24,000 bases of DNA from Alkalimonas mucilaginosa (GTDB lineage: Bacteria > Pseudomonadota > Gammaproteobacteria > Enterobacterales > Alteromonadaceae). Below are positions 3,182 through 21,802 of the stretch, in pieces (within the stretch, counting starts at the first letter, position 1; every line of letters begins with the position of its first letter). The stretch is from positions 324,170 through 348,169 of the forward strand of contig NZ_JAUGZK010000004.1 in NCBI RefSeq assembly GCF_036327005.1. Reading direction: 5' to 3'. The position numbers and the translations under genes are program-made. The notes under the pieces were generated by a model that worked only from the letters and a program-made list of their open reading frames with translations, did not search any database and was not told where the DNA came from.

Positions 3182-4753
3182 ATGAAATCAACTGCTGGTG
3201 ATAAAACGAAAAACACTCAACCGCTTACTTTGAAGCGGGTGGGGATTGATACGTACCATGAAAACGTGGCTTATCTGCATCGGGACTGCGAAATCTACCG
3301 CGCCGAGGGGTTCCAGGCTTTAGCCAAGGTGGAAGTGGAAGCCAAAGGCAAACGTATTCTGGCCAGTTTGAATGTGGTGGACGATGCCAATATCGTCAAT
3401 GGCCAGCAACTGGGCCTGTCGGAAGAAGCTTTTGCTATGCTTGGCGCACCCGATGGCGATGCCGTTCGGGTTGCACCGGCCGAGCCACCACACTCCATTC
3501 CGGCTTTGCATCGTAAAATTGCCGGCGAACGGTTAATCCGGGAGGATTTTACCAGCATTGTGCAGGACATTGCGGCGCACCGTTACTCCAAAATTGAACT
3601 GACAGCTTTTGTGGTAGCTTGCAATCAGGGTGAGCTGGACCGCGAAGAAGTGTTCTTTTTAAGCGATGCCATGAGTAAAGTGGGGCGTAAACTGGATTGG
3701 CAGGAGCATCCGGTGGTGGATAAACACTGCATTGGCGGCATCCCCGGCAACCGTACTTCGATGCTGCTGGTGCCGATTGTGGCAGCCCATGGCATGCTCT
3801 GCCCCAAGACATCATCACGCGCCATTACCTCGCCGGCTGGCACAGCCGATACCATGGAGCTGTTAGCTGCGGTGGAAATGCCCTTCGAGCAACTCACCGA
3901 GATTGTGCACCGGCACCGCGGCTGTCTGGCCTGGGGCGGTACCAGCGATTTATCACCGGCCGATGATGTGCTGATTTCGGTGGAGCGGCCCTTGTCGATT
4001 GACTCGCCGGGCCAGATGGTGGCCTCTATTTTATCGAAAAAAGTAGCTGCAGGCTCCAGTCACTTGCTGCTGGATATTCCGATTGGCCCAACGGCTAAGG
4101 TGCGTAGCATGCCGGAAGCCCAGCGACTGCGTAAACTCTTTGAGTTCGTGGCCAAGCGTATGGGCCTGACCATCGATGTGGTGATTACCGATGGCCGTCA
4201 GCCGATTGGCTATGGCATAGGCCCGGCACTGGAAGCCCGCGATGTGATGCGGGTGCTGCAAAATCACCCCAAAGCTCCCAATGATTTGCGGCAAAAATCC
4301 TTACGCCTTGCTGGCCGCATGCTGGAGTTTGACCCCGATGTGCGTGGTGGTGATGGTTTTGGCATTGCCCGCGATATTCTGGACTCGGGCCGGGCGCTGG
4401 AAAAGATGCAGGCGATTATTGCGGCTCAGGGGCAGCGTGATTTTGATCCGGACAATCCGCCCTTGTCACCACTGTCGTTTGAAATAGCTGCAGCAGAGTC
4501 CGGTACTGTGGTAGCGATAGATAACATACAACTGGCACGTATTGCCCGCTCGGCCGGGGCACCGCGCGCCAAAGGGTCCGGGGTCGACTTGCTGGCTAAG
4601 TTGGGAGAGCCGGTGGTGGCCGGTCAGCCGCTTTATCGCGTGTATGCTGCTTACCCAACCGAGCTGGCTTTTGCCCGCCAGGCCTGTGAGCGCAGCTCTG
4701 GTTACCGGATTGGCGATGCCAGTCAGCTGCTGTCCCTGCATGTGGAGTATTGA
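3182..4753 (+). CDS. Thymidine-phosphorylase-family protein, long form ('putative thymidine phosphorylase' / AMP-phosphorylase-like, with about 90-aa N-terminal extension)
   Basis: 523 aa. '[26 protein letters not shown]' parallels DeoA 'VDKHSTGGVGD..S..L.P.VAA'. '[11 protein letters not shown]' and the C-terminal alpha/beta domain are present. It is about 80 aa longer than canonical DeoA at the N-terminus. Confidence 0.85.
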
Positions 4754-4758
4754 ATCTG

Positions 4759-5649
4759 ATGACGATTTTGTTGTGTTCCCCTGATGAAAAAGCTGCCGCA
4801 GAGCGGCTGGCCAATGCCTGTAAGCTGCCGCTGCTTTGCTACCAGCAGCATCGTTTCCCGGATGATGAGCTAAAGCTGACCCTGCCGTTTGCCGATGGCG
4901 ATGCACCAACACAACTGGTGCTGTACCGCAGCCTGGACCGGCCAAACGATAAGTTGGTCGAACTGATTCTGCTGGCAAAGCACTTGCGAGGCTGCGGTGT
5001 AAAGCGTGTGCTGTTGGTCGTGCCATATCTGGCTTATATGCGGCAGGATATTGCGTTTTACCCCGGGGAAATTGTTAGCCAGAAAATCATTGGCAGTTTG
5101 TTGGCGGATTTATTTGATGCGGTGATCACTGTCGATCCCCATTTGCATCGCATCGAACATTTGCGTGAAGCCATCCCAAGAGGCGACGCCATTGCGCTGA
5201 GTGGCGCCCCCAGGCTGGCGGATTTAATCGCGGAAAAATGTCAGCAGCCTTTGCTGATTGGGCCGGATGCCGAGTCGCGGCAATGGGTCGAACTGGCCGC
5301 AGCCCGCATTGTCTGCGATTATGGGGTCTGTAGCAAGGTACGGCATGGCGATAAAGAGGTGGTCATAGCCTTGCCAGATGTGGCGGTTAGCGGGCGCCAG
5401 GTGGTGCTGATGGACGATGTTGCCAGTTCTGGGCGCACCATGGCCAGAGCCGCCGAGCAGTTGCTGGCAGCCGGTGCCGCTTCAGTCGATGTGGCGGTGA
5501 CCCACGCGCTTTTTGCCGGTGACGCCCTGGCGACTATCCAGCAGGCTGGTGTACGGCATATCTGGAGTACCGACTGCATTGCGCACGATAGCAATGCCAT
5601 CAGTATGGCACCCATATTAGCAGAGGCCTTAGCGCCCCTCTTGATTTGA
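4759..5649 (+). CDS. Ribose-phosphate pyrophosphokinase (PRPP synthetase)-family protein, divergent
   Basis: 'VVPYLAYMRQD' corresponds to the PRS 'PYfgYaRQD' block. 'VVLMDDVASSGRTM' is the PRPP/PRTase loop. The ORF opens at TTG 4750, which overlaps the upstream TGA (4751-4753); ATG 4759 is the more likely start. Confidence 0.8.
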   Translation: MTILLCSPDEKAAAERLANACKLPLLCYQQHRFPDDELKLTLPFADGDAPTQLVLYRSLDRPNDKLVELILLAKHLRGCGVKRVLLVVPYLAYMRQDIAFYPGEIVSQKIIGSLLADLFDAVITVDPHLHRIEHLREAIPRGDAIALSGAPRLADLIAEKCQQPLLIGPDAESRQWVELAAARIVCDYGVCSKVRHGDKEVVIALPDVAVSGRQVVLMDDVASSGRTMARAAEQLLAAGAASVDVAVTHALFAGDALATIQQAGVRHIWSTDCIAHDSNAISMAPILAEALAPLLI

Positions 5650-9170: not shown

Positions 9171-9872
9171 CTAAAGGGTGGTCACCCAATCTGGCAGGTA
9201 CTCAATGGCCCACAGCTCCATCACCTTATCAAAACCGGTGAAGATCATCAGGGCTATCAGCAGCAGGGCATAACCCAGCAACAGTCGCCCAACTTTGCCG
9301 GAGGCGCGCAGGGTGTTCAGTCGGGTACCGGCGGCGTACCCCAGACCCACCAATGGCAAAGCGGTACCAAGGCCAAATGCCAGCATCACGCTAAACGACA
9401 TCATCAGGCTTTCCCCGGTTGAAGCCAGAGCGATAGCGGCACCCAGGGTAGGGCCTACGCACGGCAACCAGACCAGACCCAAAGAGCCACCGATCACAAA
9501 CTGAAAGGCTGGGCGGTCTGAGGAGTCTGCCAACTGGCCGCCAGCAGGCAACCGGCTGGTCAGGCGTGACAACAGCAGACTAAATTGCTGATTCAGCCAG
9601 CCAACCACCAGCACCAGCCCCATCAACAACATAAAGACTGCGGCAAAGGTACGCATAATATCGGGCGATAAACCGGCGCTGAGCAGCAGGTAGGTCAGCA
9701 AGGAGCCCCCCAGTGCAAAGGTAAAGGCCAAACCTGCCGCTAAAAACCAGACGCCGGTTTTGGATGCCCGCATGGCCGATGCCGTCACCGCCGGTATCAT
9801 CGGCAGAACGCAAGGTGATAACAGGCTCAGCACGCCTGCTATCAGTGCCAGTGGGATGGCGGTAAACTCCAT
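9171..9872 (-). CDS. Cytochrome c biogenesis CcdA / DsbD-beta-family transmembrane thiol-disulfide electron transporter
   Basis: 6-TM protein with 'LSPCVLPMIP' and a second conserved Cys in 'LPCVGP'. Its start lies 2 nt after the stop of the upstream thioredoxin gene. Confidence 0.85.
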   Translation of the reverse strand: MEFTAIPLALIAGVLSLLSPCVLPMIPAVTASAMRASKTGVWFLAAGLAFTFALGGSLLTYLLLSAGLSPDIMRTFAAVFMLLMGLVLVVGWLNQQFSLLLSRLTSRLPAGGQLADSSDRPAFQFVIGGSLGLVWLPCVGPTLGAAIALASTGESLMMSFSVMLAFGLGTALPLVGLGYAAGTRLNTLRASGKVGRLLLGYALLLIALMIFTGFDKVMELWAIEYLPDWVTTL

Positions 9873-9874
9873 AA

Positions 9875-10306
9875 TCAGTCAGCGCCCTGGTCGTGTTTTT
9901 TCAGTTCGGCAAAGATGGTACTTTCACGGGTTTGGGCCACACTAAACCAGAGCTGCTCTTCACCACGATACAGCGCCAAGGTCGACTGACGTGGCGCCTT
10001 GAAGTAACTGACCCAGTCTTTCTGGTTATCAAAATCTACTTGCAGCACCAGGATGTCGCTGTTGGGGTTTTGGGCAAAATAGTCATTCAATACGGTGTGC
10101 TGACGGCGACAGGTCGGGCACCAGGGGGCATACACATCGATCAAAATCAGCCGGTTTTCGGCTTGGGCATGCCGAAACGCGGTTTCGGTAAAGGCCATCT
10201 TGTGTTTGGCCAGGTACTCGCTGGACGCACTGGCAGGGGCTAGCAGCATAAATGCCGCTACAGCCAGGGCAAGGACTGAGATAACAACAGTAGTGATGAT
10301 TTTCAT
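9875..10306 (-). CDS. Periplasmic thioredoxin-family protein
   Basis: Signal peptide 'MKIITTVVISVLALAVAAFMLLAPASA'. Active site 'WCPTC'. Thioredoxin-fold length. Confidence 0.85.
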   Translation of the reverse strand: MKIITTVVISVLALAVAAFMLLAPASASSEYLAKHKMAFTETAFRHAQAENRLILIDVYAPWCPTCRRQHTVLNDYFAQNPNSDILVLQVDFDNQKDWVSYFKAPRQSTLALYRGEEQLWFSVAQTRESTIFAELKKHDQGAD

Positions 10307-10427: not shown

Positions 10428-11348
10428 TTAATGATGCAAGGCTCTGAACTCTCCGGGGGAGAGTGTCTCATGCTGCTTAAAAAATCGAATAAAGGCGGTG
10501 GCAGATTGATAGCCGATTTGTTCTGCTATGAGTTCCATGCTCAATTCGCTGTGGATCAACAGATAACGGCAGCGCTGCAGTCGCAGCTCATCCAGCAAGG
10601 ATTTGGCCGTCATAGCCATCACTTTATGGCAGCGCTCGGCAAAGGCGCTTTTGGACAGAAATGCCAGTGCGGCCATGTTCTCTACCGTCCAGTCAGCACC
10701 CGGCTCGTCCATGATGGCCAGTACCACCCGGCGTAGCGCCGGATCTTTTAGTGCCGCCAGCAGGCCTTGTTGCATGCTGTCGTCACTGAGCACCTGGCGC
10801 AGCAAGTGCAACACCACCACATCGCTCAAGCGACTGATAGCAGCCTGATAACCAGGCTGACGGGCTTGGGCTTCCTGCCGGATCAGCTGAATTAATGGAC
10901 TTAACCGGCCGGATTGCTGGTTGGCAGGCAGATGAATGTAGTCCGGCATCACCTGAAACAGATTGGCGGTGAGTGGTGATTCGACCGCAATGTCGTAGCA
11001 GACCAGACCACGCTCCAGGTGGTCAGGCACACAAAAGTTGGCGAAGTCGACTTCGCTGGTGTGTTCGTTGACCGGCTCGTCACTAAGCCAATGCCGGAAA
11101 CTGTGGCTGAAAAAAATGGCATCGCCGGCTTCCAATTGCACTTGCTGATGCAGTCGGCCCGGAATTGCCATCCAAACCCGGCCTTGCGTCACCACATGCA
11201 GGGCCGCTTTGCTTGATTTATTAGCCAGCATATTCCAGTGACCACAAAATCCGGACTCAAAATGCAGCTCAGAGCCAAAAGCGAGCTGCGATAACAATTG
11301 CTCAAGTGCTTCCGGTGTTTCGGTCGATGGGTCTGGTGCTTTTGTCAT
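10428..11348 (-). CDS. AraC-family transcriptional regulator with N-terminal cupin-type domain
   Basis: C-terminal double HTH ('...MENMAALAFLSKSAFAERCHKV...', '...IAEQIGYQSATAFIRFFKQHETLSPGEFR'). The N-terminal half has a cupin-like 'GDAIFFSHSFRHWL'. It is divergent from the 11440-14388 operon. Confidence 0.85.
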   Translation of the reverse strand: MTKAPDPSTETPEALEQLLSQLAFGSELHFESGFCGHWNMLANKSSKAALHVVTQGRVWMAIPGRLHQQVQLEAGDAIFFSHSFRHWLSDEPVNEHTSEVDFANFCVPDHLERGLVCYDIAVESPLTANLFQVMPDYIHLPANQQSGRLSPLIQLIRQEAQARQPGYQAAISRLSDVVVLHLLRQVLSDDSMQQGLLAALKDPALRRVVLAIMDEPGADWTVENMAALAFLSKSAFAERCHKVMAMTAKSLLDELRLQRCRYLLIHSELSMELIAEQIGYQSATAFIRFFKQHETLSPGEFRALHH

Positions 11349-11439
11349 TGTTGTCTTAGAGAAATAAAACTATGGTAGTAGTGATAGGACACAGAGCCAA
11401 GTGCTTTATTGTAAGCTACACCAACTGGATACAGAATGC

Positions 11440-11931
11440 ATGTTGATTATTAAACAAAACCTGCACCAATTGGATTTGCTGGGTATCATTCTACGGCAGG
11501 TGCAGCCTGAACATTACCGGCAGGTCAAAGACTGGCCCGGTGAGCCTTCAGTCGGTAAGCATATCCGTCATGTGCTGGACCATTATCAGCAGCTGTGGCT
11601 GGCATCCGACAGTCATCAGCTGGATTACCGGCTGCGGCTGCGCGATGAAGGCGCACAAAACGATCCGCGAAAAGCGCTGCACTGGATAGAGCGCTTGCAA
11701 ACCTGGCTGCAGTGCCTGGAAGCCGATGAGCTGGATGCCCGGCTGAGCTACCAATTTGCCGAAGGCACCACCTACACCAGCTTGCAACGCGAACTGGATT
11801 TTGTTGCCAGTCATGCGGTGCATCATCTGGCCTTGATCCATGCATTGCTGGAACCCTGGGGCTACAGCTGGCCCGCAGAAGCCGGCGTACACAGCTCGAC
11901 CCGAGAGTATCACAAACGATGTGCACCCTAA
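11440..11931 (+). CDS. DinB-family (DinB_2 / YfiT-like four-helix metal-binding) protein
   Basis: His-rich helix motifs 'GKHIRHVLDHYQQL' and 'ASHAVHHLALIHALL'. The ORF opens at GTG 11401; ATG 11440 gives a typical family N-terminus. Its 3' end overlaps the next gene by 13 nt. Confidence 0.6.
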   Translation: MLIIKQNLHQLDLLGIILRQVQPEHYRQVKDWPGEPSVGKHIRHVLDHYQQLWLASDSHQLDYRLRLRDEGAQNDPRKALHWIERLQTWLQCLEADELDARLSYQFAEGTTYTSLQRELDFVASHAVHHLALIHALLEPWGYSWPAEAGVHSSTREYHKRCAP

Positions 11932-13529
11932 GCTGGTGGTACCAGCAAGGACAGCTGCATATCCTGTTCAACCGGGATGAGCGAAAAAACCGCGCCCGGG
12001 CGCATGCACCCCAGCGTATTAGCCGGCAAGGTGTGGACGCCATCATGCCCATCGATCCAGACGGTGGTGGCAGCTGGGTGGCCGCCAACGACCAGGGCCA
12101 GGTCTTTTGCCTGCTCAACGATTATGCCGCCGCTTATCAGCCGGCACCTGGCATTCGCCGCAGTCGGGGATTGCTGCTAAAGGCACTGGCGCACAGCCTT
12201 GATTGGCAGGCGCTGGATGCTATGTTGCAGCCAGAGCAACTAGGCTGCTATGCACCTTTTCGCTTGCTGCTCTTTGTTGGGCAACAGGAGCCGCTGCTGT
12301 GGCATTGGGATGGCAGCCAGCTTCGCCAGCAGCTGGCACCAAGCTCGCCTTTATCCAGCTCCAGTGCTTTATCCGGGCTGATCCCAAGGCTCAGAGCCTG
12401 GCACTGGCAACGGGTAATGGCCCGCTCACCGTCACTGCAAACCCTGCAGCGATTGCATCGTAAAGCCGCACCTTTCGGCGCTTTTAGCGGCATCGCCATG
12501 CAGCGCAGCCTGGTGCAAACGGTCAGCATCACGCAATTGACCATTAAAGCGGGTAGCATCTGCATGCAGTATTGGGATGGACATCCGTCCATGCATCAGG
12601 CCGGTGACAGCCACAGTCTGGAGCTGCCACTGCGTAAGCAGTTGCTGGCAGAACGCTCCTTTAGCAGCCGGTTGGATGTAGAGGCTTTGTTTCGCCGTTA
12701 CAGCCCGGCGCTGGCTGACCAGCTCACCGGTTGGCAGTGGGCTTTATTGCGCTGGCTGTTGGCGGAAAAACCATTCAATCAGGGGCTGCAGCCTCTGAAT
12801 CAGCAGCCAGCCGAGCGATTTTTCGATGTGGCGCTGCAGTGCCTTCGGCTTCGCCCGGACATCATTGCCTGCCGCTGGCCTGTGAGCAGCAGTCGGCCGG
12901 TGTTTGTCTGCAATCACCCCACCGGCGGCATCGATGGTTTGCTGCTGATCAGTGTGTTGCAAAAGCGCTATCCAAATTTGCAGGTACTGGCCAACGAAGC
13001 GCTGACCGAAGTGCAGCAGCTGGCCGGGCGCATGGTGCCGATCCCGGTATTTGCTAAGCCTAAAGATGCGCTGCCATGGGTGCAGGCTGCTTTTGCCAGC
13101 GACGCACCCCTGTTGATTTTTCCGGCTGGTCGTACCGCCAGAAAGGGCGGCAAAGGTCAGTTGGACGATGGCAACTGGGCCAAATTGACGGTGACATTGG
13201 CCAGGCGGCAGCAGCGCAGCCTGACAGTGCTGCATCTGCAAAGTCAGAATTCGACTTGGTTCTATACGTTGGCCTGGCTGCGCACCAGACTGGGCATCCA
13301 GGCCAATCTGGAAATGCTGTTGCTGGTGCGGGAAATGCTAAAGCCCGCCAATCGTACACCACGACTGTATGTCGATATTCCGATGCATGCCGTTGAGCTG
13401 GACGCTCTGGCCGATACCGATCGGCAGCGTATCGCCTGGTTGAAACGCCGTTGCTATCAACTACCCACTATTTATCAGGAGGAACCCGATGCCGATGGTA
13501 AGCCCAGTTGCAGCCGCCGAGCCGGCTGA
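11919..13529 (+). CDS. Fusion protein: N-terminal NRDE/TANGO2 (DUF833)-like domain + C-terminal lysophospholipid (PlsC/OlsA/GlsA-type) acyltransferase domain
   Basis: A single uninterrupted 536-aa frame. It begins 'MCTLSWW..LHILFNRDER', which shows the Met-Cys N-terminus and the NRDE signature. The C-terminal half has 'VFVCNHPTGGIDGLLL' (acyltransferase His/Asp block) and 'LLIFPAGRTARKG' (FPEGTR-like block). Confidence 0.7.
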   Translation: MCTLSWWYQQGQLHILFNRDERKNRARAHAPQRISRQGVDAIMPIDPDGGGSWVAANDQGQVFCLLNDYAAAYQPAPGIRRSRGLLLKALAHSLDWQALDAMLQPEQLGCYAPFRLLLFVGQQEPLLWHWDGSQLRQQLAPSSPLSSSSALSGLIPRLRAWHWQRVMARSPSLQTLQRLHRKAAPFGAFSGIAMQRSLVQTVSITQLTIKAGSICMQYWDGHPSMHQAGDSHSLELPLRKQLLAERSFSSRLDVEALFRRYSPALADQLTGWQWALLRWLLAEKPFNQGLQPLNQQPAERFFDVALQCLRLRPDIIACRWPVSSSRPVFVCNHPTGGIDGLLLISVLQKRYPNLQVLANEALTEVQQLAGRMVPIPVFAKPKDALPWVQAAFASDAPLLIFPAGRTARKGGKGQLDDGNWAKLTVTLARRQQRSLTVLHLQSQNSTWFYTLAWLRTRLGIQANLEMLLLVREMLKPANRTPRLYVDIPMHAVELDALADTDRQRIAWLKRRCYQLPTIYQEEPDADGKPSCSRRAG

Positions 13530-14388
13530 GTTGATTGCACAGGAGCTGGCACAGTTAAAGCCGATTGCCAGCGTTCGCGGTTTGCTGGTATTCAGCGCTC
13601 AGGCTGCCAGCATGCCAGTGACCATGCTGGAAATTGGCCGTTTGCGCGAATTGATGTTTCGCAGTGCCGGCGCCGGCCGTAACCTAGCGCGGGATCTGGA
13701 TGCTCTGGATTATGGCGAGCATGCCTATCACCAGTTGCTGGTGTGGGATCCGGCCAGGTTGGAGTTGGTGGCCATTTACCGCTACCAGTTAGGCTGGCAA
13801 GCAGCTCAGCATGGCCATGCCTTGCTGCGTACCAGCCAGCTGTTTGATTACAGCAAGGCTTTTTGCAGCCAGGTGTTGCCCTATGGCATTGAGCTGGGCC
13901 GCTCGGTGGTCAATACCAGTGCTAAGGCCCGTACCCTGGGTTTCTTTGCGTTATGGGCCGGGCTGGGAGCCTTGGCCCGCATCCACCCGCAGCTGCAGTA
14001 CTTTTTTGGCAATGTTTCGCTCTATCAAAGCCTGGGCCAGCAAGCCATTGCCTGCATGGTGCAGTTTTGCCAGCAGCTGTATACTCCGACGCAGCCGATG
14101 ATGATGGCAAAAAACGGTCTGAATTACGCAACAGCACACACGCTGGAGTGTCGCGGCTGGGTAGAGTTGGGCCCAGACGGGCGTATCCGGCAGTTGCAGC
14201 AACTGCTCAAACCCTATGGTTGCCGTCTGCCGCCCATTTTGCAGTCGTATTTAAGTGTGGGCAACGGTATCTGGTTTGACGATGCCGCCTTGGATGAGGA
14301 TTTTGGCCTGGCCTATGAGCTTAGCATCATCGTGCCACTGACCGCAGTCAGCGGGGCTATCCGGCAGCGCTTTTTGCGCGAAGCCTAG
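13489..14388 (+). CDS. GNAT-fold N-acyltransferase of the OlsB / N-acyl amino acid synthase (Acetyltransf_5) type
   Basis: 'GRLRELMFRSAGAG...DLDALDYGEHAYHQLLVWDPARLELVAIYRY' resembles the conserved OlsB-family block. AGGAGGA (13476-13482) lies 6 nt before the ATG. It overlaps the upstream gene by 41 nt. Confidence 0.7.
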   Translation: MPMVSPVAAAEPAELIAQELAQLKPIASVRGLLVFSAQAASMPVTMLEIGRLRELMFRSAGAGRNLARDLDALDYGEHAYHQLLVWDPARLELVAIYRYQLGWQAAQHGHALLRTSQLFDYSKAFCSQVLPYGIELGRSVVNTSAKARTLGFFALWAGLGALARIHPQLQYFFGNVSLYQSLGQQAIACMVQFCQQLYTPTQPMMMAKNGLNYATAHTLECRGWVELGPDGRIRQLQQLLKPYGCRLPPILQSYLSVGNGIWFDDAALDEDFGLAYELSIIVPLTAVSGAIRQRFLREA

Positions 14389-14394
14389 CCTTTC

Positions 14395-14997
14395 TTAAGG
14401 CTTGCTGCTGCCATTCGAGCCCAGGCCGCCGCTTAACACCAGCTGCAGCGCTTCGGCTGGTTTCATCTCCAGATTGCGGGTGCAGCTGCGCGGTACGATG
14501 ATGGTGTAACCGCCGACGTTGTAGGCCATTGGGATAAACACTGCCAGTTGTTCGTCATTCATTAAAGAGGACATGCGATCGCCATCAAGGCCACCTTTTT
14601 TGGTGACGATACCAATTAGTTCTATATCTGTGCCCGGCAGTTTGACCATCACCACCGACTCATCGGCAAAGTTTTTGCCCGACATCACATCCATTAAATC
14701 CTGCAGCATGCCGTAGATTTGCTTGGTACCCGGCAGTTTGAGCAGCAGCTTGCCGGGCAACTGCCACAACCAGTCAAAACCGCGCCAGCGGGCGCTAAAG
14801 CCAATCACCACACACAGCAGCACAAAGGCGGCAATCGCCATGCCTGGCAGATACCAGCTCGGCGGTAACACCAGCTCCAGCAGCGGGGCCAGCCTGGACT
14901 CAATGGTCACCAGCAACCAGCGGATCAGCTCGATGGTAATGACAATGGGCAGAATAATGGCCAGGCCTTTAGCCAGGCTTTTAGCGATAATTTTCAT
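14395..14997 (-). CDS. DUF502-family membrane protein
   Basis: 'MKIIAKSLAKGLAIILPIVITIELIRWL', a second TM segment, then 'VVMVKLPGTD..IGIVT' and 'VFIPMAYNVGGYTIIVP' are typical of DUF502. The ORF extends to 15036, but ATG 14997 fits the family N-terminus. Confidence 0.65.
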   Translation of the reverse strand: MKIIAKSLAKGLAIILPIVITIELIRWLLVTIESRLAPLLELVLPPSWYLPGMAIAAFVLLCVVIGFSARWRGFDWLWQLPGKLLLKLPGTKQIYGMLQDLMDVMSGKNFADESVVMVKLPGTDIELIGIVTKKGGLDGDRMSSLMNDEQLAVFIPMAYNVGGYTIIVPRSCTRNLEMKPAEALQLVLSGGLGSNGSSKP

Positions 14998-15224
14998 AGG
15001 GTATTCACGGTTGAAAACGAAACTACTGAGCAGCATACCAGCTGAACAGGCGCTAAAGCGAGCAGACTAAGCTCTTTTGTACGCACATATCCCTCCTGCA
15101 CTTTATGAGCTTTAACAGGGCCTACCTACTATGTCGACATCAATTTTTGTGGCGTTGGTTTGCTACTGGTGCTATTGATATAACACGACTGCTAAAAACC
15201 ATAACAAAAACCGGAAAACTTGAA

Positions 15225-16526
15225 ATGACGTACAGGTTTACTGGCTCCCCAGTGTTGAGCTATCTGGGGACGACAAAAGAAGCGAAAAGAACTCACATAC
15301 CAAACTTTCTAGCCGAAGATGAATTAATTAAGCACCTGATTGCTTATGAGCCGATGTTTACGAGTTTACGCGGTAGTTTACGATGGGATCTCAGCAGTTG
15401 CTCAATAGTTACAGCCGATTTGGCAGTATTCAACGCTGCTATCGATGATCTGTTGTTAAGCATACTGAATCACTGTGTGTCACCGATTGTTGTGGTGACT
15501 GCACAAGCCAATGAAAACAGTTTAAAGGTTGTTTTTAAGGTTACTTCTGGAGTTCGAGCTAAAGCATTCTCGGATACTGATTTTCAACAAATCCGAAAGC
15601 TTATGCGCTCTTTAAATGCAGATGCCAGCCTAGCTGAATCTGAGGCTTTCCTGACCATTGAAATCACTTTGTCAGCTAAACAGCGCTTGGTTAATGGAGA
15701 GCACCCTGCGGAGCGGCAAATTACCCAATTTAACCTTCACGAATTGGCCAGACTTAATAATGATGCAGATAATTTTAATCCACTGGTTTTAATCGTCGAG
15801 CCTAATGATGAGCTTAGACGGTTTCTTGTAAGATTACTGCAACCAGATTACCGGGTGCTAGAAGCCATAACAGGCAAGCAAGCATTTGAGATAGCCTGCA
15901 ATGACATTCCAGATTTAATTGTTACCGATGTATTGTTGCAAGAGCTTGATGGTTTAAGCCTGCTCAAAGAATTATCAGCTCAGGAGAGTACCAGCCATAT
16001 TCCTGTAATGTTTTTATCTGGAATTAAAGCCAGTGAAGCCAAAATTGATGCATTACAGCTAGGGGCAGTTGATTATTTGACCAAACCCTTTATTGCGGCA
16101 GAATTACTGTTGAAAATTCGTAATGTGGTACAGACGCGTTACAGGGTCGTTTTGAGCAATGGCGGGAGGTTACCATTAGACCGTTTAAAAAATGCATTAC
16201 CAGAGCGTGAGTTAGAGTTTCTCACCAGACTGGAGCGCCTTGTTGCGCTTCTTTTCGCAGATCCCGAGCTGGATACAGCTTCACTGGCAACACATCTTGC
16301 AATGAGTGATCGGCAATTGCAGCGCAAGGTCAAAGCGCTGCTGCACCAAACACCGGTTGAGTATATTCGTGAGTACCGACTGCATCGGGCTAAAGAGCAT
16401 TTGTTGAAGGGGAAACCTGTTGCCTTGGTATCGGATTTAGTTGGTTTTGCATCTCCAAGCCACTTTAGTAAATGTTTCAAGTTGGCTTTTCAGCAGACAC
16501 CATCAGAGTTCGCCCAGTCGCTTTAG
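15225..16526 (+). CDS. Orphan response regulator: degenerate HATPase-like N-domain + REC + AraC-type HTH output
   Basis: The REC domain has 'LVLIVEPNDE', 'DLIVTDVLLQELDG', 'VMFLSG' and 'DYLTKPF'. The C-terminal AraC HTH has 'DRQLQRKVKALLHQTPVEYIREYRL...FASPSHFSKCFKLAFQQTPSEF'. The ORF opens at 15105, but residues 1-40 look non-protein-like, so ATG 15225 is preferred; the start is uncertain. Confidence 0.8.
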   Translation: MTYRFTGSPVLSYLGTTKEAKRTHIPNFLAEDELIKHLIAYEPMFTSLRGSLRWDLSSCSIVTADLAVFNAAIDDLLLSILNHCVSPIVVVTAQANENSLKVVFKVTSGVRAKAFSDTDFQQIRKLMRSLNADASLAESEAFLTIEITLSAKQRLVNGEHPAERQITQFNLHELARLNNDADNFNPLVLIVEPNDELRRFLVRLLQPDYRVLEAITGKQAFEIACNDIPDLIVTDVLLQELDGLSLLKELSAQESTSHIPVMFLSGIKASEAKIDALQLGAVDYLTKPFIAAELLLKIRNVVQTRYRVVLSNGGRLPLDRLKNALPERELEFLTRLERLVALLFADPELDTASLATHLAMSDRQLQRKVKALLHQTPVEYIREYRLHRAKEHLLKGKPVALVSDLVGFASPSHFSKCFKLAFQQTPSEFAQSL

Positions 16527-16592: not shown

Positions 16593-18098
16593 TTAGTCAC
16601 ATGGTTGCCAACTCTGACCGTCAACACTACATTCAAATAAGCGGGTACCATCGTCTAACTCAGTTTCCCGCTCCCAGCGGCCATCCGAATATTTGTGAAT
16701 GGCGACACCATTTTGAATTTTACTTTTACGCCAATACTCTGTACTTACCCGTACTTCGCTGTCGTACTCATAACCCAATAAGTCAAAAAACTGCATAAGC
16801 TCTGTAGCTGGCAAAGTTGGCTTCTCTTTAACATTAATCCAATCAGGCAAGTCGAAGAAAACAGGTTGTGATTCTCTGAAAGAAAATTCAGCGCCAGTAG
16901 ATCCGCCATCTTCCTCATTTATACGAATGGATAATCCTCGCTCATAGGGCATTTCAAAATTATTGTTTACACATTGTTCCAGAGCCGGAAAGCTGACGGT
17001 CGGGACAATGTTTGCTAATTCATAATGAGTTTGTTCAAAGTCAAAACTGACTCGCTCAATATTACCGCAACGATAGCCACCGTCAGGGTCTCGATAGGTG
17101 TCTTGCCGAATACTCAACCAACCCTTCAGTGACTGATCATTCCATGGTTGTCCTAACTCATGAAATTTTGCAAGAACAAAATCCACTTCATCCAAATTTG
17201 GAGAGTCTACTAGTTTGACTCTCTCAATAAAATCTTCACTACCTAGAAAGATAATCTCATCGCGATACCAGCCATTGCTAACGTTAAAATATTCATCATG
17301 CTGAGTGCTACGATAAACAAACACGCGAACTTCATTTGCTGTAGGATAGGTTTTCCTTAATTCCGTTTTGTGTCGATATGCGGCTTTAAGACCTTGCATG
17401 ATATCTTGTGCGGCATGATAAGCCACTGAGTCATTATCTGCGATAAAATCAGCGTATAGCCGATCAGCGGATAGATTGTAGAATGACACAAGCCCACGAA
17501 CGGTTTCTTCGATTTCATTTTTCAGTGTTTGTACTTCTTCCACATGGTTTTTAAGGTAGTGACAGTGCTTTTCCTCTATGGTTCGTGGGTAGCTTCGCTC
17601 AATAGCTTCCCAAACCACCGTGGTTAACGGAGAAATATTTCGTGTAAGGCCGTCCCTGAAATCTGCTTCTGTAATCGGCTCAAAGGTGGGCTGTAATATG
17701 ATTTGATAAGCTTCAGTTACTTCTCCAAGATCTTCATCAAAAGCACCGACAGGCACATCGACGATCAAAGCAGAATATGCAACACACTCAGCAAAATCTT
17801 CCGGGATCTCCAAGTAGTAATCTCCGGCTTCTTCAGTAAGTTTTTGTGGTTCGTCAGGATCAGCTATTCCATTGCCATTAATATCTAAAAATACTGTACC
17901 TCCTACTATGTAACCATCTATTGCTTTTCCCGACACTGTTAAAAACCGCGCTGTCGGTGGTGTCACTCCTTGAGGAGGTGGTGTCACGCCTTGCGATGGT
18001 GGCGCTGGTTCAGAGCTGCCACCACCACCGCAAGCACTTAAAGCAACTGCAATGGCAGTGACAATTGCCAGTTTGGTAAATATTTGGTTTTTCTTCAT
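16593..18098 (-). CDS. Lipoprotein of unknown function (Pro-rich tandem linker, Ca-binding-like loop)
   Basis: Signal peptide plus lipobox 'AVALSAC' followed by GGGGS. Linker 'PPSQGVTPPPQGVTPP'. 'GKAIDGYIVGGTVFLDINGNGIADPDEP' is a DxNxNGxxD-type loop. The remaining ~400 aa or so resemble no family I recognise. Confidence 0.8.
   Translation of the reverse strand: MKKNQIFTKLAIVTAIAVALSACGGGGSSEPAPPSQGVTPPPQGVTPPTARFLTVSGKAIDGYIVGGTVFLDINGNGIADPDEPQKLTEEAGDYYLEIPEDFAECVAYSALIVDVPVGAFDEDLGEVTEAYQIILQPTFEPITEADFRDGLTRNISPLTTVVWEAIERSYPRTIEEKHCHYLKNHVEEVQTLKNEIEETVRGLVSFYNLSADRLYADFIADNDSVAYHAAQDIMQGLKAAYRHKTELRKTYPTANEVRVFVYRSTQHDEYFNVSNGWYRDEIIFLGSEDFIERVKLVDSPNLDEVDFVLAKFHELGQPWNDQSLKGWLSIRQDTYRDPDGGYRCGNIERVSFDFEQTHYELANIVPTVSFPALEQCVNNNFEMPYERGLSIRINEEDGGSTGAEFSFRESQPVFFDLPDWINVKEKPTLPATELMQFFDLLGYEYDSEVRVSTEYWRKSKIQNGVAIHKYSDGRWERETELDDGTRLFECSVDGQSWQPCD
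17956..17997 (-). repeat. Two tandem 21-nt units encoding the (P)PxQGVTP linker repeat of the lipoprotein
   Basis: ggtggtgtcactccttgagga / ggtggtgtcacgccttgcgat are adjacent, in frame, and match at 17/21 positions. Confidence 0.7.
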
Positions 18099-18261: not shown

Positions 18262-18789
18262 ATGGTGAAATTTTTCTTATTCTTCATACATATCTTTTCT
18301 GTTGTGCTAAAACTGACAACTAGTGCTTCAACGATCATGGCTGCAGGTGTATTTGTTTTTCTTTATGGCTTCATTTTATATGGCATGTATGAATTAAGCT
18401 TCCAAGTGGTATCTTGGAAGAAACGTTTGAAAGAGAAATATCGGGGCAAGGAGCATTTTGGCTGGATAATGGTTCCGACTTTAATTGCAGGGGTTGGAGT
18501 AGGAGTGCCGCTAGTGTTTATTTCGATAATATCATTTGCTGTTTTAGTGGTACTTAATAGTTACACAGTAGGGGCTAATCGGGCAGCTGATGAAATCAAA
18601 GCTTTTGTTCAATGCGATCATCCTGAAGCAAGGTGTACCAGGATTTTCTCTGGTACTGACTTGATTGCTGAAGGTAAGATCGTAACGGTGTCAGCTAAAA
18701 GTCTAGCGGTATTTGATGGCCATAGAGTGTTAATTCTAGATCATGATAATCTTCGCGTTGAGACAGAAATACAAAAACAGCATAGGTAG
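18262..18789 (+). CDS. Hypothetical membrane protein (3-4 TM helices + approximately 75-aa C-terminal soluble domain)
   Basis: 175-aa ORF. Hydrophobic helices 'FFLFFIHIFSVVL', 'IMAAGVFVFLYGFILYGMY' and 'IMVPTLIAGVGVGVPLVFISIISFAVLVVL'. No clear SD; ATG 18337 is an alternative start. Confidence 0.55.
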   Translation: MVKFFLFFIHIFSVVLKLTTSASTIMAAGVFVFLYGFILYGMYELSFQVVSWKKRLKEKYRGKEHFGWIMVPTLIAGVGVGVPLVFISIISFAVLVVLNSYTVGANRAADEIKAFVQCDHPEARCTRIFSGTDLIAEGKIVTVSAKSLAVFDGHRVLILDHDNLRVETEIQKQHR

Positions 18790-18843: not shown

Positions 18844-19359
18844 GTGATCTATTGGAAGTCGTTTCAACATCAGGGGAATGAATTTAGTCTTGAACATCTA
18901 CATCCCAAAATATGGCTCTATGAACAAGCTGCAACAGACACTAAGCCTGCTATACCTTATCGGATTAGGGTTATTTATAGTTTGCATTGTTTTACTGTGA
19001 TGAGGGATGAGACAAAGCCTAAGCTGGATTATTCAGACGACAGAGAAATAAGAACTTTTTGTTTCGATAGGTACGAGTGGTCGAAGCTTCTGAACGAGGT
19101 CATTGAAAACCTGGATGAAGGGCATGTATACCATACGGGGCGACAAAATTTTCTAAGAATCAGGAGCACTTCAGGCTCGGAGTATGAAGTGTTTTTTACG
19201 CTCATGAAGTCAAAAGAGAAAGGTGTCGATCTTCAGCTATACGTTCAATCTGCTTACCTGAGAACCAGAGGAAGTAGCCCAAAGGCTGGTAAGATTCGAT
19301 TTTCTGTTATTGCATACAACACGAAAGCAAATAAACCAATTAAGGTACATAAACGCTAG
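18844..19359 (+). CDS. Hypothetical cytosolic protein, family not recognised
   Basis: 171-aa ORF with a GTG start preceded by GAGG (18833-18836) at 7-nt spacing. A strong rho-independent terminator follows. No TM segment and no motif I can name. Confidence 0.6.
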   Translation: MIYWKSFQHQGNEFSLEHLHPKIWLYEQAATDTKPAIPYRIRVIYSLHCFTVMRDETKPKLDYSDDREIRTFCFDRYEWSKLLNEVIENLDEGHVYHTGRQNFLRIRSTSGSEYEVFFTLMKSKEKGVDLQLYVQSAYLRTRGSSPKAGKIRFSVIAYNTKANKPIKVHKR

Positions 19360-19876: not shown

Positions 19877-21718
19877 TTACTCGTCCAGGAAGCTTTTTAA
19901 CACTTCCGAGCGCGATGGGTGGCGCAGTTTGCGTAATGCCTTGGCTTCGATCTGCCGGATCCGCTCCCGGGTAACGTCGAACTGTTTGCCGACTTCTTCC
20001 AGGGTGTGATCGGTATTCATGTCGATACCAAACCGCATCCGCAGTACTTTGGCTTCACGGGCGGTAAGGCCGGCCAGTACTTCGTTGGTGGCGTTTTTCA
20101 GACTTTCCATCGTGGCTGAGTCCAGTGGTGATTCACCGCTGGTATCCTCGATAAAGTCGCCCAGATGCGAATCTTCATCATCGCCAATCGGGGTTTCCAT
20201 CGAAATTGGCTCTTTGGCGATTTTCAGCACCTTGCGGATTTTGTCTTCTGGCATTTGCATGCGTTCGGACAATTCTTCCGGTGTTGGCTCCCGGCCCATC
20301 TCCTGCAACATCTGCCGGGAGATCCGGTTCAGCTTGTTGATGGTTTCGATCATATGCACCGGAATACGGATGGTACGGGCTTGATCAGCAATGGAGCGGG
20401 TGATGGCCTGACGGATCCACCAGGTGGCATAGGTCGAAAACTTGTAACCACGACGGTATTCGAATTTATCGACGGCCTTCATCAGACCAATATTGCCTTC
20501 CTGGATCAGATCAAGGAATTGCAAACCACGGTTGGTGTATTTTTTCGCAATCGAAATAACCAGACGCAGGTTGGCCTCGACCATTTCCTTTTTCGCCCGG
20601 CGGGCTTTGGCTTCGCCAATGGACATCCGACGGTTGATGTCTTTAATTTTGGTAATGCTAAGGCCAGTCTCTTCCTCAACTTTCTTCAGTTTTTCAACAC
20701 AGCGATACAAATCGTCTTTGAAATCGCTCAGTTTTTCAGAGTGCGTTTTTTTGGCTGCAATTTCAGCATCGATCCAGGCCGTAGAGGTTTCATTGCCAGT
20801 GAAGGCTTTTACGAAAGCTTTCTTCGGCATTTTGGCATGTTCGACGCTGTGCTTCATCAGCAGACGTTCCTGCACCCGCACCCGGTCCATCATTTCGCGC
20901 ATGTTTTTGACCAGGCGATCGAATTGCTTCGGTACCAGGCGGAAACAGCGAAACACTTCACTCAGCTTCAGAATCTCTTCTTTGGTGGTGTCGTGCTCAC
21001 GGCCATTGCTGACAATGGAGTTACGGGTAACATCGTATTGCTGACGCAATTCACCGAATTTAATGCGGGCAACTTCCGGATCCGGACCGCTATCACCATC
21101 ATCGGCATCGTCGCTGTCGTCATCATCGTCGTCATCGTCGTCATCGTCGTTGTTGGATTCCGGCACATCTGAACCAATGTTGGTTGCAATTACCGGTGCT
21201 TCATCCAGCTCATTCGGATCGACGAATGCGGTGACGATGTCACTCAGTCGCATCTGGTCGGCTTCGAATTTATCCCACAACTCAAGCAGGTAGGTGATAG
21301 CTTCCGGATATTCCGCAACCGAGGTTTGTACCTGGTTGATGCCATCCTCGATGCGCTTGGCGATTTCAATTTCGCCATCCCGGGTTAATAGCTCGACGGT
21401 GCCCATTTCCCGCATGTACATCCGCACCGGATCAGTGGTGCGGCCGAGTTCTTTATCGACACTGACCAGCGCCTGAGCAGCTTCTTCAGCGGCATCATCA
21501 TCGGCGGCGGCATCGGCCATGATCAGATCATCGGCATCCGGGGCGGATTCAAACACCTGGATCCCCATGTCGTTGATCATGCGGATAATATCTTCGATTT
21601 GCTCCGAGTCGATAATGTCTTGTGGAAGGTGGTCATTGACTTCCGCAAAGGTGAGGTACCCTTGCTCTTTACCTTTCAAGATCAGGAGTTTGAGTTGCGA
21701 CTGAGGACTTTGCTCCAT
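19877..21718 (-). CDS. rpoD: RNA polymerase sigma-70 factor RpoD
   Basis: '[23 protein letters not shown]' is the canonical N-terminus and gives 613 aa. The region 2 block '[30 protein letters not shown]' and the region 4.2 block '[30 protein letters not shown]' are present. The ORF-track start at 21802 adds 28 implausible residues. Confidence 0.97.
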
Positions 21719-21802
21719 AGAGGCTATGCTTCCACTCAAGTTAATTAATAAACGAATTGCGAACTGGCAATTATAACAAACTGCGGCATTTCTAGCCAGC
21801 AA

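Follow-up and report, generated by a model that had tools for sequence, protein, structure and literature searches.

The window, a stretch of 24,000 nt from Alkalimonas mucilaginosa, carries three overlapping genes on the forward strand between positions 11440 and 14388. They encode a DinB-like protein, a fusion protein of 536 aa and an N-acyltransferase of 299 aa. The features of the locus are:

9171..10306, reverse strand: CcdA/DsbD-type membrane thiol-reductant transporter and thioredoxin, given as context only (Pfam DsbD_2/DsbD_TM, Thioredoxin)
10428..11348, reverse strand: divergent AraC-type regulator with Cupin_6 (Pfam, E 1.5e-33) and HTH_18 (E 2e-17) domains
11349..11439, no strand: divergent intergenic region, presumed promoter/operator by position only
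11440..11931, forward strand: His-rich putative metalloprotein of the DinB fold, 163 aa (Pfam DinB_2, Foldseek, alignments)
11919..12650, forward strand: TANGO2/NRDE Cys-Ntn domain of the fusion, approximately residues 1-244 (Pfam TANGO2, Foldseek, hhalign)
[quoted passage not shown]
12702..13463, forward strand: Acyltransf_2 domain of the fusion (GlsA/OlsF-N-like), putative lyso-aminolipid O-acyltransferase, residues 262-515 (Pfam, NCBIfam)
12912-12938 and 13119-13142, forward strand: NHPTGGIDG and FPAGRTAR motifs in the C-terminal domain of the fusion
13489..14388, forward strand: GlsB/OlsF-C-like putative amino-acid N-acyltransferase, 299 aa (Pfam, NCBIfam)

The DinB-like frame ends at 11931 and the fusion gene starts at 11919, giving an overlap of 13 nt. 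The frame of the 299-aa protein starts at 13489 and shares 41 nt with the 3' end of the fusion gene (13529). Gene positions and overlaps are exactly those given in an earlier sequence-only reading of this DNA, which had also suggested translational coupling. The three genes are a translationally coupled operon, and their arrangement is kept across phyla. For the DinB-like gene, the start is most likely ATG 11440 (163 aa) and not GTG 11401, since the close homologs all share a length of the 163-aa type.

The same reading had placed the operon under an AraC/cupin regulator. This gene is indeed located divergently, but it is not a member of the module, being confined to the Alkalimonas/Alishewanella/Aliidiomarina lineage: Alishewanella (L081) has it next to the cassette, as does Aliidiomarina (L086), and L082-L084 lack it. 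Its identification as RclR (NF040475) was rejected, with 89.4 bits against an equivalog cut-off of 400, leaving membership of the Cupin_6/AraC family only. A scan of 11349..11439 for consensus promoters gave no signal above chance. The trio of regulator, CcdA-type transporter and thioredoxin is the same in Alishewanella L081. In Cyclonatronaceae L084, a thioredoxin gene is located immediately 5' of the DinB-like gene.

The fusion is encoded by a single unbroken frame on the forward strand (11919-13529) that starts with MCTLSWW and carries ILFNRDER at residues 15-22. A survey of domain architectures and gene neighbourhoods, proposed along with the sequence-only reading, found the NRDE-acyltransferase fusion to be recurrent, with 58 proteins in total (57 from databases and the one from A. 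mucilaginosa). As the same single-ORF architecture occurs in all of these, from independent genomes and metagenomes, the uninterrupted frame is confirmed and a fusion created by assembly is excluded. A seemingly unfused homolog (P0017) proved to be a gene-calling error with an intact 536-aa ORF beneath. The carriers belong to three phyla, Pseudomonadota, Balneolota and Spirochaetota, in which the cassette is kept, and are largely alkaline or soda-lake taxa. In every case the partner of the NRDE domain is an O-acyltransferase and in none an N-acyltransferase.

The C-terminal half of the fusion matches Acyltransf_2 (PF19576) over residues 262-515 with 88.3 bits (cut-off 27, E 5e-25). Both motifs previously taken as signs of a PlsC/OlsA/GlsA-like acyltransferase are present, NHPTGGIDG at residues 332-340 and FPAGRTAR at residues 401-408, which together with the profile match upholds this assignment. 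Across 17 homologs, no variation is seen at N332, H333, P334, G336, D339, G340, F401, G404, T406 and R408. The 299-aa protein matches Acetyltransf_5 (PF13444; 35 bits, cut-off 22.4), in agreement with the proposed OlsB/N-acyl-amino-acid-synthase type, and its nearest NCBIfam families are GlsB and the C-terminal half of OlsF. In numbers, the C-terminal half of the fusion reaches 148.9 bits for GlsA (NF053697, equivalog cut-off 260) and 104 bits for the N-terminal half of OlsF, and the 299-aa protein 172.3 bits for GlsB (NF053696, equivalog cut-off 300) and 152 bits for the C-terminal half of OlsF. All four scores fall short of the cut-offs, so that equivalog status as GlsA, GlsB or OlsF was rejected. 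A single-polypeptide OlsF (NF052615, cut-off 620 bits) was likewise dismissed, the two modules being separate genes with 104 and 152 bits. A GlsB/OlsF-C-like gene is found directly 3' of the fusion gene in L081-L084, L086, L001 and L002. Judged by family membership, the C-terminal half is the putative O-acyltransferase, and the product of the next gene the putative N-acyltransferase, of an aminolipid pathway of the OlsF/GlsBA type. A literature search found no paper linking Alkalimonas with an aminolipid.

Two known systems are closest to this core. OlsF of Serratia proteamaculans, Flavobacterium johnsoniae and Vibrio cholerae, a bifunctional ornithine/lysine lipid synthase, has an Acyltransf_2-type module followed by an Acetyltransf_5-type module; this domain order, O-acyltransferase before N-acyltransferase, equals the gene order of the operon (PMC12971839). 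In Alkalimonas, by contrast, the modules are encoded by two genes that overlap, a TANGO2/NRDE domain of 250 aa is added, a DinB-like gene lies ahead, and the scores for OlsF are far below its cut-off. GlsB/GlsA of Bacteroides (commendamide, glycine lipid, flavolipin) is also a two-gene system of an N- and an O-acyltransferase from the same families and provides the best NCBIfam matches. Differences are the reversed gene order in Alkalimonas (A, then B), scores below 260 and 300, and occurrence in proteobacterial and soda-lake taxa. Among the 77 Bacteroidota-type loci retrieved, none had the NRDE fusion or the DinB-like partner.

The N-terminal half of the fusion matches TANGO2 (PF05742) over residues 1-173 with 35.0 bits (gathering cut-off 22.6), covering profile positions 1-172 of 257. 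It has the Met-Cys N-terminus and the NRDE motif (residues 18-21) of the family. The AlphaFold2 model of the fusion has a pLDDT of 89.5 and a pTM of 0.89, and the best Foldseek matches of the N-terminal domain are the human TANGO2 structures 9bwa and 8sv7 (E 3e-9 to 8e-9, target TM 0.57-0.62). These are followed by acyl-CoA:isopenicillin N acyltransferase (IAT, 2x1d) and then bile-salt hydrolases; penicillin V acylase and the bacterial NRDE protein 3gvz were also found. The earlier assignment of this half to the TANGO2/NRDE family is thus supported by profile and predicted structure alike, the latter being a Cys-Ntn fold. An alignment with hhalign pairs C2, NRDE, R25, D46, N67, R83 and G84 with C2, N25-E28, R32, D51, N75, R88 and G89 of human TANGO2, and the conserved positions of the NRDE domain thereby fall on human residues proposed to be catalytic or anion-binding (PMC13044924). 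The alignment spans fusion residues 1-119 only and includes no counterparts of human N157 and K166. The invariant residues S148, R159 and R196 are candidates for the remainder of the catalytic constellation (human N157/K166, bile-salt hydrolase N175/R228). Apart from the shared fold and residues, human TANGO2 resembles the bacterial domain in its lipid and acyl context, with acyl-CoA binding and a build-up of lysolipids on loss (PMC11867700). It differs in that identity is only about 13% and that the partners of the bacterial subfamily, a fused acyltransferase or a neighbouring DinB-like gene, are not reported for eukaryotic TANGO2 in the cited literature.

Among 99 fused and free members, C2 (99%), R19 and D20 (100% each), E21 (98%), R25, D46, N67 and R83 are conserved to at least 96%, and R159 and S203 also lie within 96-100%. 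The 45 fused members have the same invariant set as the 54 that stand alone. Cys2 and the strictly N-terminal position of the domain are what an N-terminal nucleophile demands of the sequence. IAT and bile-salt hydrolases share the four-layer alpha-beta-beta-alpha Cys-Ntn fold, which the operon's domain has by prediction, and form an acyl-Cys thioester, IAT from acyl-CoA and bile-salt hydrolases on N-acyl-glycine amides. Unlike IAT and some others, which are self-cleaving precursors, the domain would need only the removal of Met1; identity is 8-13%. Taken from model and sequence, the N-terminal domain is probably a complete and active Cys-Ntn fold.

A non-catalytic N-terminal domain, acting as a lipid- or acyl-binding, membrane-targeting or regulatory module, appears improbable. 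Four fusions have jointly lost Cys2 and NRDE and still retain the domain. Such joint loss is expected if both belong to one active site, and persistence of the decayed fusion suggests that a catalytic role is dispensable in some lineages. For human TANGO2, moreover, binding but no acyltransferase activity has been described (PMC11867700), and the pTM of the model suggests tight packing of the N-terminal domain on the acyltransferase. Against this, the conservation of Cys2 and of R19, D20, E21, N67, R83, R159 and S203 is hard to explain without chemistry at this site, and the strict N-terminal placement fits the need for a free N-terminal Cys.

Less probable still is a role in heme binding or trafficking, with the adjacency to acyltransferases incidental. 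The model would be HtpA (SO0126) from Shewanella oneidensis, the one bacterial TANGO2 homolog known to have been studied by experiment, which binds heme with a Kd of about 12 uM and modestly boosts cytochrome c maturation (PMC10470608). CcdA-like and thioredoxin genes near the operon would fit such a role, but these neighbours are lineage-specific, and HtpA is reported as a stand-alone protein. The heme role itself is contested: it has been challenged (PMC12782551), and heme binding was reported to be non-specific (PMC13044924). It also leaves the 58 O-acyltransferase fusions, the recurrent OlsB/OlsA-like neighbours and the DinB partner unexplained.

The DinB-like protein matches DinB_2 (PF12867; 30.7 bits, cut-off 24.8). 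Its subfamily, which numbers 1,749 clusters, is distinct and uncharacterised. Invariant in alignments are G39, H41, R43, H44, Y63, R66, R68, R117, E118, H125, H128, H129, A131, G149, S153 and T154, in the motifs GKHxRHxxDHY, DYxxRxR, RELxFxxSHxxHH and GVxxST; the invariant H41/H44, H125 and H129 form a putative metal triad. The AlphaFold2 model (pLDDT 94.8) has long helices, and Foldseek returned DinB/YfiT proteins, mycothiol and bacillithiol S-transferases, MDMPI and the N-domains of EgtB/OvsA. With the metal-dependent thiol S-transferases of the DinB/YfiT fold (BstA, mycothiol S-transferase) and the EgtB N-domain it shares a four-helix bundle and a putative His-based metal site. It is set apart from the S-transferases by its own invariant motifs, as a separate subfamily.

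At all fused and unfused loci examined, a DinB-like gene lies immediately 5' of the NRDE gene. The sole exception is L176, a fusion with a degenerate N-terminal domain. Conversely, in 37 of 71 metagenome loci seeded on the DinB-like gene alone, NRDE is encoded directly downstream. The DinB-like protein, earlier regarded as an extra partner, is instead a near-constant companion of this NRDE subfamily, fused or unfused. The conserved unit is the DinB-like and NRDE gene pair, adjacent and usually overlapping where unfused. This pair is widespread, and the fusion elaborates on it in a minority of cases. At 6 syntenic loci, unfused pairs are followed by OlsB-like and OlsA-like genes, an aminolipid synthase system non-orthologous to the GlsA/GlsB-OlsF-like one, and at 11 loci by a gene for an alpha/beta-hydrolase-VTT-ATP-grasp (DedA-type) protein. 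Given the fusions and the unfused pairs beside a second aminolipid system, the link of DinB-NRDE to lipoamino-acid acylation is recurrent. Pairs without any acyltransferase nearby (L089, L090, L092, L175) imply that the function of DinB-NRDE is not restricted to serving this O-acyltransferase.

Those structural relatives of the DinB-like protein whose function has been characterised (the mycothiol and bacillithiol S-transferases, MDMPI and the N-domains of EgtB/OvsA) would suit a supply of head groups from thiol conjugates, which we regard as improbable. Here, the DinB-like protein would be a metal-dependent thiol transferase and NRDE an amidohydrolase trimming the conjugate, with the freed amine N-acylated by the GlsB-like enzyme. 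The logic is that of EgtB with EgtC, BstA with Bca, or GST with gamma-glutamyl transpeptidase, and the product would be mercapturate-like with a fatty acid. Thioredoxin, CcdA, DoxX, GST, glutaredoxin, CMD and an ECF sigma factor with a zinc anti-sigma factor are among the neighbours of the pair, but these redox genes vary from locus to locus. The Foldseek matches to the S-transferases and their kin are weak (E 0.035 to 1), the top matches being uncharacterised DinB proteins. No linked genes for the biosynthesis of low-molecular-weight thiols were found, and DinB-like genes lacking NRDE still occur within OlsB-like/OlsA-like operons.

Judged from the enzyme families, the operon most likely produces an amino-acid lipid of the acyloxyacyl kind, of the same type as ornithine or glycine lipids. 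The GlsB/OlsF-C-like enzyme would attach a 3-hydroxy fatty acid to the amino group of an amino acid, and the Acyltransf_2 half of the fusion would then esterify a second fatty acid onto that hydroxyl. Tentatively, and with somewhat less than even confidence, we propose that in making this lipid NRDE acts as an acyl-thioester relay for O-acylation, aided by the DinB-like protein. After removal of Met1, Cys2 would become the N-terminal nucleophile; the domain would bind an acyl-thioester donor, probably acyl-CoA, and take the acyl group onto Cys2 as in IAT. From there the acyl group would be delivered to, or proof-read for, the O-acylation that follows next to it. As a guess, the DinB-like protein might help in a metal-dependent way by binding the substrate at its thiol or anionic portion. 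The acyl-thioester relay is favoured by acyl-CoA binding of human TANGO2 and by the O-acyltransferase as exclusive fusion partner. Purified human TANGO2 binds acyl-CoA via NRDE; when TANGO2 is lost, lysophospholipids rise and phospholipids fall, a defect in lyso-lipid O-acylation (PMC11867700). A further point in favour is that the acyl donors of OlsF have yet to be identified (PMC12971839). One point against a relay for O-acylation is that the NRDE gene of type II operons adjoins the OlsB-like N-acyltransferase gene and not the O-acyltransferase gene. The acyl donor of characterised bacterial OlsA and OlsB is acyl-ACP, not acyl-CoA, which counts against an acyl-CoA relay.

This position in type II operons would suit a close rival that we consider possible but rather unlikely, in which NRDE is an amidase or transamidase. 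Cys2 would attack the N-acyl amide of a lyso- or diacyl-aminolipid, leading to hydrolysis (turnover, or proof-reading of mischarged amino acids) or to head-group exchange as in bile-salt hydrolases, with the DinB-like protein positioning the incoming amine or carboxylate. To our knowledge, all characterised Ntn hydrolases are amide cleavers, and the intermediate of the pathway has the chemistry of an N-acyl amino acid; both points favour amide chemistry. The fold neighbours beyond TANGO2 are likewise amide-cleaving Cys-Ntn enzymes (IAT, bile-salt hydrolases cleaving N-acyl-glycine/taurine, penicillin V acylase), and ATP-grasp amino-acid ligases recur nearby, suggesting head-group elaboration. 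A Cys-Ntn hydrolase has been argued for TANGO2, and bile-salt hydrolase is also an amine N-acyltransferase (PMC13044924). On the other hand, a hydrolase fused to a synthase whose work it undoes needs a special rationale, TANGO2-family proteins are without any demonstrated amidase activity, and the human data favour acyl-CoA binding over amide substrates (PMC11867700).

A literature search found no description of the NRDE-acyltransferase fusion or of a DinB-NRDE aminolipid architecture, in line with the earlier statement that no characterised example was known. The DinB-NRDE-aminolipid architecture is new; the type of pathway is already known. The finding bears on the function of TANGO2, a human disease protein, and the fusion operon offers a simple bacterial system for testing what TANGO2-family proteins do.

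The fusion gene is the middle member of a three-gene cassette, and the surrounding genes were placed by the ORF map as follows.

10428-11348, divergent: gene with Cupin_6 and HTH_18 domains (Pfam)
11401/11440-11931, same strand as the fusion gene: DinB-like gene, DinB_2 (Pfam)
11919-13529, same strand as the DinB-like and N-acyltransferase genes: fusion gene, 536 aa, uninterrupted
13489-14388, same strand as the fusion gene: gene of a 299-aa protein, Acetyltransf_5 (Pfam)
14395-15036, convergent: DUF502 gene (ORF map and Pfam), at the end of the unit

The cassette genes overlap by 13 nt (DinB-like/fusion) and 41 nt (fusion/299-aa protein), so that the ORF map agrees with the sequence-only reading on the three overlapping genes and the uninterrupted 536-aa frame. 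The domain assignments proposed there were also borne out. The N-terminal part of the fusion matches TANGO2 (residues 1-173, 35 bits against a cut-off of 22.6; Pfam) and the C-terminal part Acyltransf_2 (residues 262-515, E 5e-25; Pfam), and the 299-aa protein is assigned to Acetyltransf_5. Among the NCBIfam models, the C-terminal half of the fusion scores 149 bits for GlsA and 104 bits for the N-terminal half of OlsF, and the 299-aa protein scores 172 bits for GlsB and 152 bits for the C-terminal half of OlsF. Every score is below its equivalog cut-off, which rules out equivalog status as GlsA, GlsB or OlsF; at the sequence level, such values show a family relationship rather than orthology for both acyltransferase modules. 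The predicted aminolipid core is thereby of a known kind, the OlsF/GlsBA type, and is treated as a new subfamily because it fails the GlsA, GlsB and OlsF equivalog thresholds. The divergent AraC gene lies where it had been described but does not belong to the conserved module, being lineage-specific, and its score of 89 bits, where the RclR model requires 400, led to rejection of an identity as RclR. In scans for promoters and terminators, no signal exceeded shuffled expectation.

Two other regions of the window were annotated. Between 15000 and 20000, GC content falls to 0.41-0.45, compared with 0.52-0.59 on both flanks; this stretch may be an acquired island adjoining rpoD and dnaG (19877-23551). 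It contains a hybrid regulator with receiver and AraC-HTH domains (15105-16526), a weakly YjaZ-like ORF (18844-19359, plus strand) and two ORFs (16593-18098, minus strand; 18262-18789, plus strand) with no match in Pfam or NCBIfam. At 3182-5649, an archaeal-type gene of the thymidine/AMP-phosphorylase family (NF003338, 695 bits) overlaps a PRK07199-type ribose-phosphate diphosphokinase-like gene by 4 nt, which looks like an ordinary nucleotide-salvage pair.

The fusion is not a product of assembly, a concern that had been raised with its first description, since the same architecture is kept in 58 proteins. This number, which includes the protein of the window, combines a word-index homology search (40 matches, about three quarters of them full-length) with an HMM search run exhaustively over 1.84 billion representatives. 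A scan of genome contigs added at least three further fusions, with unfused GlsA-like genes of Bacteroidota dominating among the matches listed. At 96% identity, a protein of Alkalimonas delamerensis is the nearest database entry. Fusions are carried by Alkalimonas, Arsukibacterium, Alishewanella, Idiomarina, Aliidiomarina, Salinispirillum, Natronospirillum and a member of the Cyclonatronaceae (Balneolota), as well as by soda-lake MAGs of Ectothiorhodospiraceae and Spirochaetaceae. A 17-sequence alignment shows the MC(T)xSW start, (N/S)RDE, NHPxGxxDG and FPAGRT to be invariant or nearly so. One apparent unfused close homolog (P0017, 343 aa) proved to be a gene-call artefact covering an intact fusion ORF, and a close Acyltransf_2 and Acetyltransf_5 relative that is unfused (L087/L088) has neither the NRDE domain nor the DinB-like gene. 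Locus L095 was set aside for its shortness. In a neighbor-joining tree of the N-domain, crude and used solely for this point, fused and free forms are intermingled, a pattern compatible with fusion or fission having occurred more than once. The carriers are mostly alkaliphilic or soda-lake taxa from three phyla (Alkalimonas, Arsukibacterium, Natronospirillum, Cyclonatronaceae and soda-lake sediment MAGs; e.g. loci L001, L002, L003 and L084). This apparent enrichment is anecdotal; it hints that the fusion may have spread horizontally within such habitats or may have a function at high pH.

For the full-length fusion, a confident AF2 model (pLDDT 89.5) has a pTM of 0.89, which for a two-domain protein suggests a defined inter-domain arrangement. 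In a Foldseek comparison with the PDB, the best matches were human TANGO2 (9bwa and 8sv7, E 3e-9 to 8e-9), followed by acyl-CoA:isopenicillin N acyltransferase (IAT; 2x1d), the bacterial NRDE protein CV2077 (3gvz), and bile-salt hydrolases (BSH) with penicillin V acylases. Because of these matches, the modeled N-domain is taken to be a complete Cys-Ntn alpha-beta-beta-alpha domain, in line with the TANGO2/NRDE half of Ntn-like fold expected from the sequence and with the Pfam match. Compared with the PDB by phmmer as a single sequence, the N-domain gave no relevant match, and an N-domain profile reached 8sv7 only at E 0.029. For the residue mapping, human TANGO2 was represented by what we take to be its sequence, residues 18-95 of which are identical to the profile-search match. 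This numbering fits all residues cited in PMC13044924.

Residues of the window's N-domain and their human TANGO2 equivalents (hhalign profile comparison)
C2: human C2
N18-E21: human N25-E28
R25: human R32
D46: human D51
N67: human N75
R83: human R88
G84: human G89

The alignment spans residues 1-119 only, and human N157 and K166 have no mapped equivalents. Across 99 fused and free members, conservation of at least 95% is found for C2, W6, R19, D20, E21, R25, D46, G51, W53, N67, S82, R83, G84, W130, S148, R159, R196, T201, S203 and Y218. In four fusions whose N-termini are intact, Cys2 and NRDE have been lost jointly, as expected of residues serving one site. Naturally 'dead' N-domains, in which Cys2 and NRDE are gone while the fold and the fusion are kept, were noted in Natronospirillum (L002, 5761-7254), in locus L176 (4001-5581) and in proteins P0057, P0058, P0061 and P0072. 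Of the two degenerate loci examined, the DinB-like gene is kept in L002 and absent in L176, where an ATP-grasp_4 gene lies upstream in its place.

The small protein encoded upstream is homologous in all cassettes according to alignments, with the invariant motifs GKHxRHxxDHY, DYxxRxR, RELxFxxSHxxHH and G(V/L)xxST. The overlap of its stop with the NRDE start, ATGTGCACCCTAA (window 11919-11931), is kept in Alishewanella (L081), Salinispirillum (L083), Aliidiomarina (L086) and locus L091; solely because MCTLS is encoded here in the frame of the fusion, the DinB-like protein ends in a conserved C-terminal 'CAP'. The pairing extends beyond fusions. A search of representatives found many stand-alone NRDE proteins (234-278 aa) that match the N-domain of the fusion at 205-270 bits, whereas the generic Pfam TANGO2 model gives the window's fusion 35 bits. 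All four stand-alone loci looked up have the DinB-like gene immediately upstream, and none has an adjacent acyltransferase. When a metagenome scan was seeded with the DinB-like protein alone, 71 loci extended far enough for an assessment: an NRDE gene was found directly downstream in 37 of them and elsewhere in the locus in two; the 32 loci with no NRDE gene mostly belong to one subclade. Comparative genomics thus shows the predicted TANGO2-family Cys-Ntn domain and the DinB-fold protein to be a conserved unit.

The DinB-like family comprises 1,749 clusters, for which the sources' sole name is 'DinB family protein'. Its AF2 model (pLDDT 94.8) is a DinB/YfiT four-helix bundle, and the characterised structural relatives, all with weak E-values, are MST, BstA, YfiT, MDMPI and the N-domains of EgtB/OvsA. 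MST, BstA and YfiT are metal-dependent thiol S-transferases. A CcdA/DsbD-type transporter and thioredoxin adjoin the AraC regulator in the window (9171-10306, minus strand) and in Alishewanella (L081, 1482-2614), the DinB-like gene of a member of the Cyclonatronaceae has a thioredoxin gene directly upstream (L084, 4822-5289), and free pairs have DoxX, GST, glutaredoxin, CMD and ECF-sigma with zinc anti-sigma as neighbors. These redox neighbors may connect a Cys-dependent enzyme with thiols or oxidative stress.

Neighbors of 23 unfused pairs were clustered. Same-strand genes for an Acetyltransf_5 protein (OlsB-like, 174 bits; NCBIfam) were found in nine loci and for a PF01553 PlsC-type acyltransferase (OlsA-like, 192 bits; NCBIfam) in six, and in 11 a protein of about 860 aa with alpha/beta-hydrolase, VTT (DedA/UptA-like) and ATP-grasp domains is encoded directly downstream. 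These recurrent neighbors therefore define at least four settings for the DinB/NRDE pair.

Type I: DinB - [NRDE~Acyltransf_2] - GlsB-like, the arrangement of the window
Type II: DinB - NRDE - OlsB-like - OlsA-like
Type III: DinB - NRDE - [ABH-VTT-ATP-grasp]; in some loci an Acetyltransf_5 gene lies upstream
Type IV: DinB/NRDE pair alone

Synteny is shared among the type II loci, which probably stand for one lineage. In the NRDE-less subclade, too, the DinB-like gene lies in an operon, together with OlsB-like, OlsA-like and [VTT-ATP-grasp] genes. By comparative genomics, the DinB/NRDE unit is shown to be repeatedly joined to two non-orthologous N-/O-acyltransferase systems predicted to make acyloxyacyl aminolipids. 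The large membrane protein with VTT and RimK/cyanophycin-synthetase-like ATP-grasp domains (L099, 4546-7014; L143, 4513-7083; L130, 4788-7760) follows the DinB-like gene or the pair and has an alpha/beta-hydrolase domain in most loci, not in L099. Such proteins are candidates for head-group extension or alternative O-acylation, because, for ornithine lipid, no gene is known to encode the ATP-dependent taurine transferase and the alpha/beta-hydrolase OlsI is able to serve as an aminolipid O-acyltransferase (PMC12971839). A DUF547 gene adjoins the cassette or the pair in unrelated loci (Salinispirillum L083, 4626-5453; free pair L090, 302-1165) and is also present in a soda-lake MAG without NRDE and DinB (L087, 3721-4554).

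From family knowledge, the GlsB-like enzyme would form an N-(3-hydroxyacyl) amino acid, which the Acyltransf_2 domain would then esterify (PMC12971839). With low to moderate confidence, we infer that the NRDE domain would take an acyl-thioester donor to give S-acyl-Cys2, as IAT does from acyl-CoA, and that this would serve the O-acylation step. The acyl-thioester reading is favored because human TANGO2 shows NRDE-dependent acyl-CoA binding and its loss leads to lysophospholipid accumulation (PMC11867700), because IAT is the closest enzyme of known mechanism by Foldseek, because the fusion partner is always an O-acyltransferase, and because the acyl donors of OlsF-type enzymes are unknown (PMC12971839). 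A close rival takes the N-acyl amino acid as substrate of the NRDE domain for amide hydrolysis or head-group exchange, which would be classic Ntn chemistry, with BSH as a precedent for hydrolysis as well as amine transfer (PMC13044924). Readings of lower probability are supply of the head group by a thiol-conjugate route, following EgtB/EgtC logic, and a wholly non-catalytic N-domain. The same holds for a heme role like that of HtpA, the Shewanella oneidensis TANGO2 homolog (PMC10470608), which is contested (PMC12782551, PMC13044924) and accounts for none of the gene-context data.

The fusion protein is named in databases only as 'NRDE family protein'. The literature consulted (a 2026 aminolipid review, TANGO2 papers and full-text searches) contained no description of an NRDE fusion, a DinB-like partner or the OlsB/OlsA-like recurrence, in keeping with the initial statement that no characterised example of this architecture was known to its author. 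TANGO2 is mentioned in none of the 15 top-ranked papers listed for a looser search. Likewise, these literature searches yielded no link between TANGO2 and aminolipids, Alkalimonas and aminolipids, the NRDE family and DinB, or N-acyl amino acid synthase and DinB.

Human TANGO2 deficiency is a severe metabolic disease, and the biochemical activity of the protein is still disputed, with heme chaperone, acyl-CoA binder and Cys-Ntn hydrolase as competing views (PMC11867700, PMC13044924, PMC12782551). Gene fusion and conserved gene order in bacteria offer some of the rare unbiased hints of function, and in this case they point consistently to fatty-acyl transfer onto lyso-lipids and to a putatively metal-binding DinB-like partner. 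Being small and suited to E. coli, the three-gene operon makes the question directly testable and offers a tractable bacterial handle on it. Aminolipid pathways gain an accessory module, and the ATP-grasp-DedA proteins are flagged as candidates for head-group extension. A further-reaching proposal, which we consider rather improbable as a whole, is that the DinB-like/NRDE pair makes up a so far unrecognised system of lipoamino-acid metabolism with two components, devoted to acyl transfer (or amide remodelling), in which an acyl-CoA-derived S-acyl N-terminal Cys feeds lyso-lipid O-acylation, and that this is the ancestral activity of the whole TANGO2 family. If true, the views of human TANGO2 as an 'acyl-CoA-binding protein' and as a 'Cys-Ntn hydrolase' would be reconciled, and the accumulation of lysolipids in TANGO2 deficiency would be explained.
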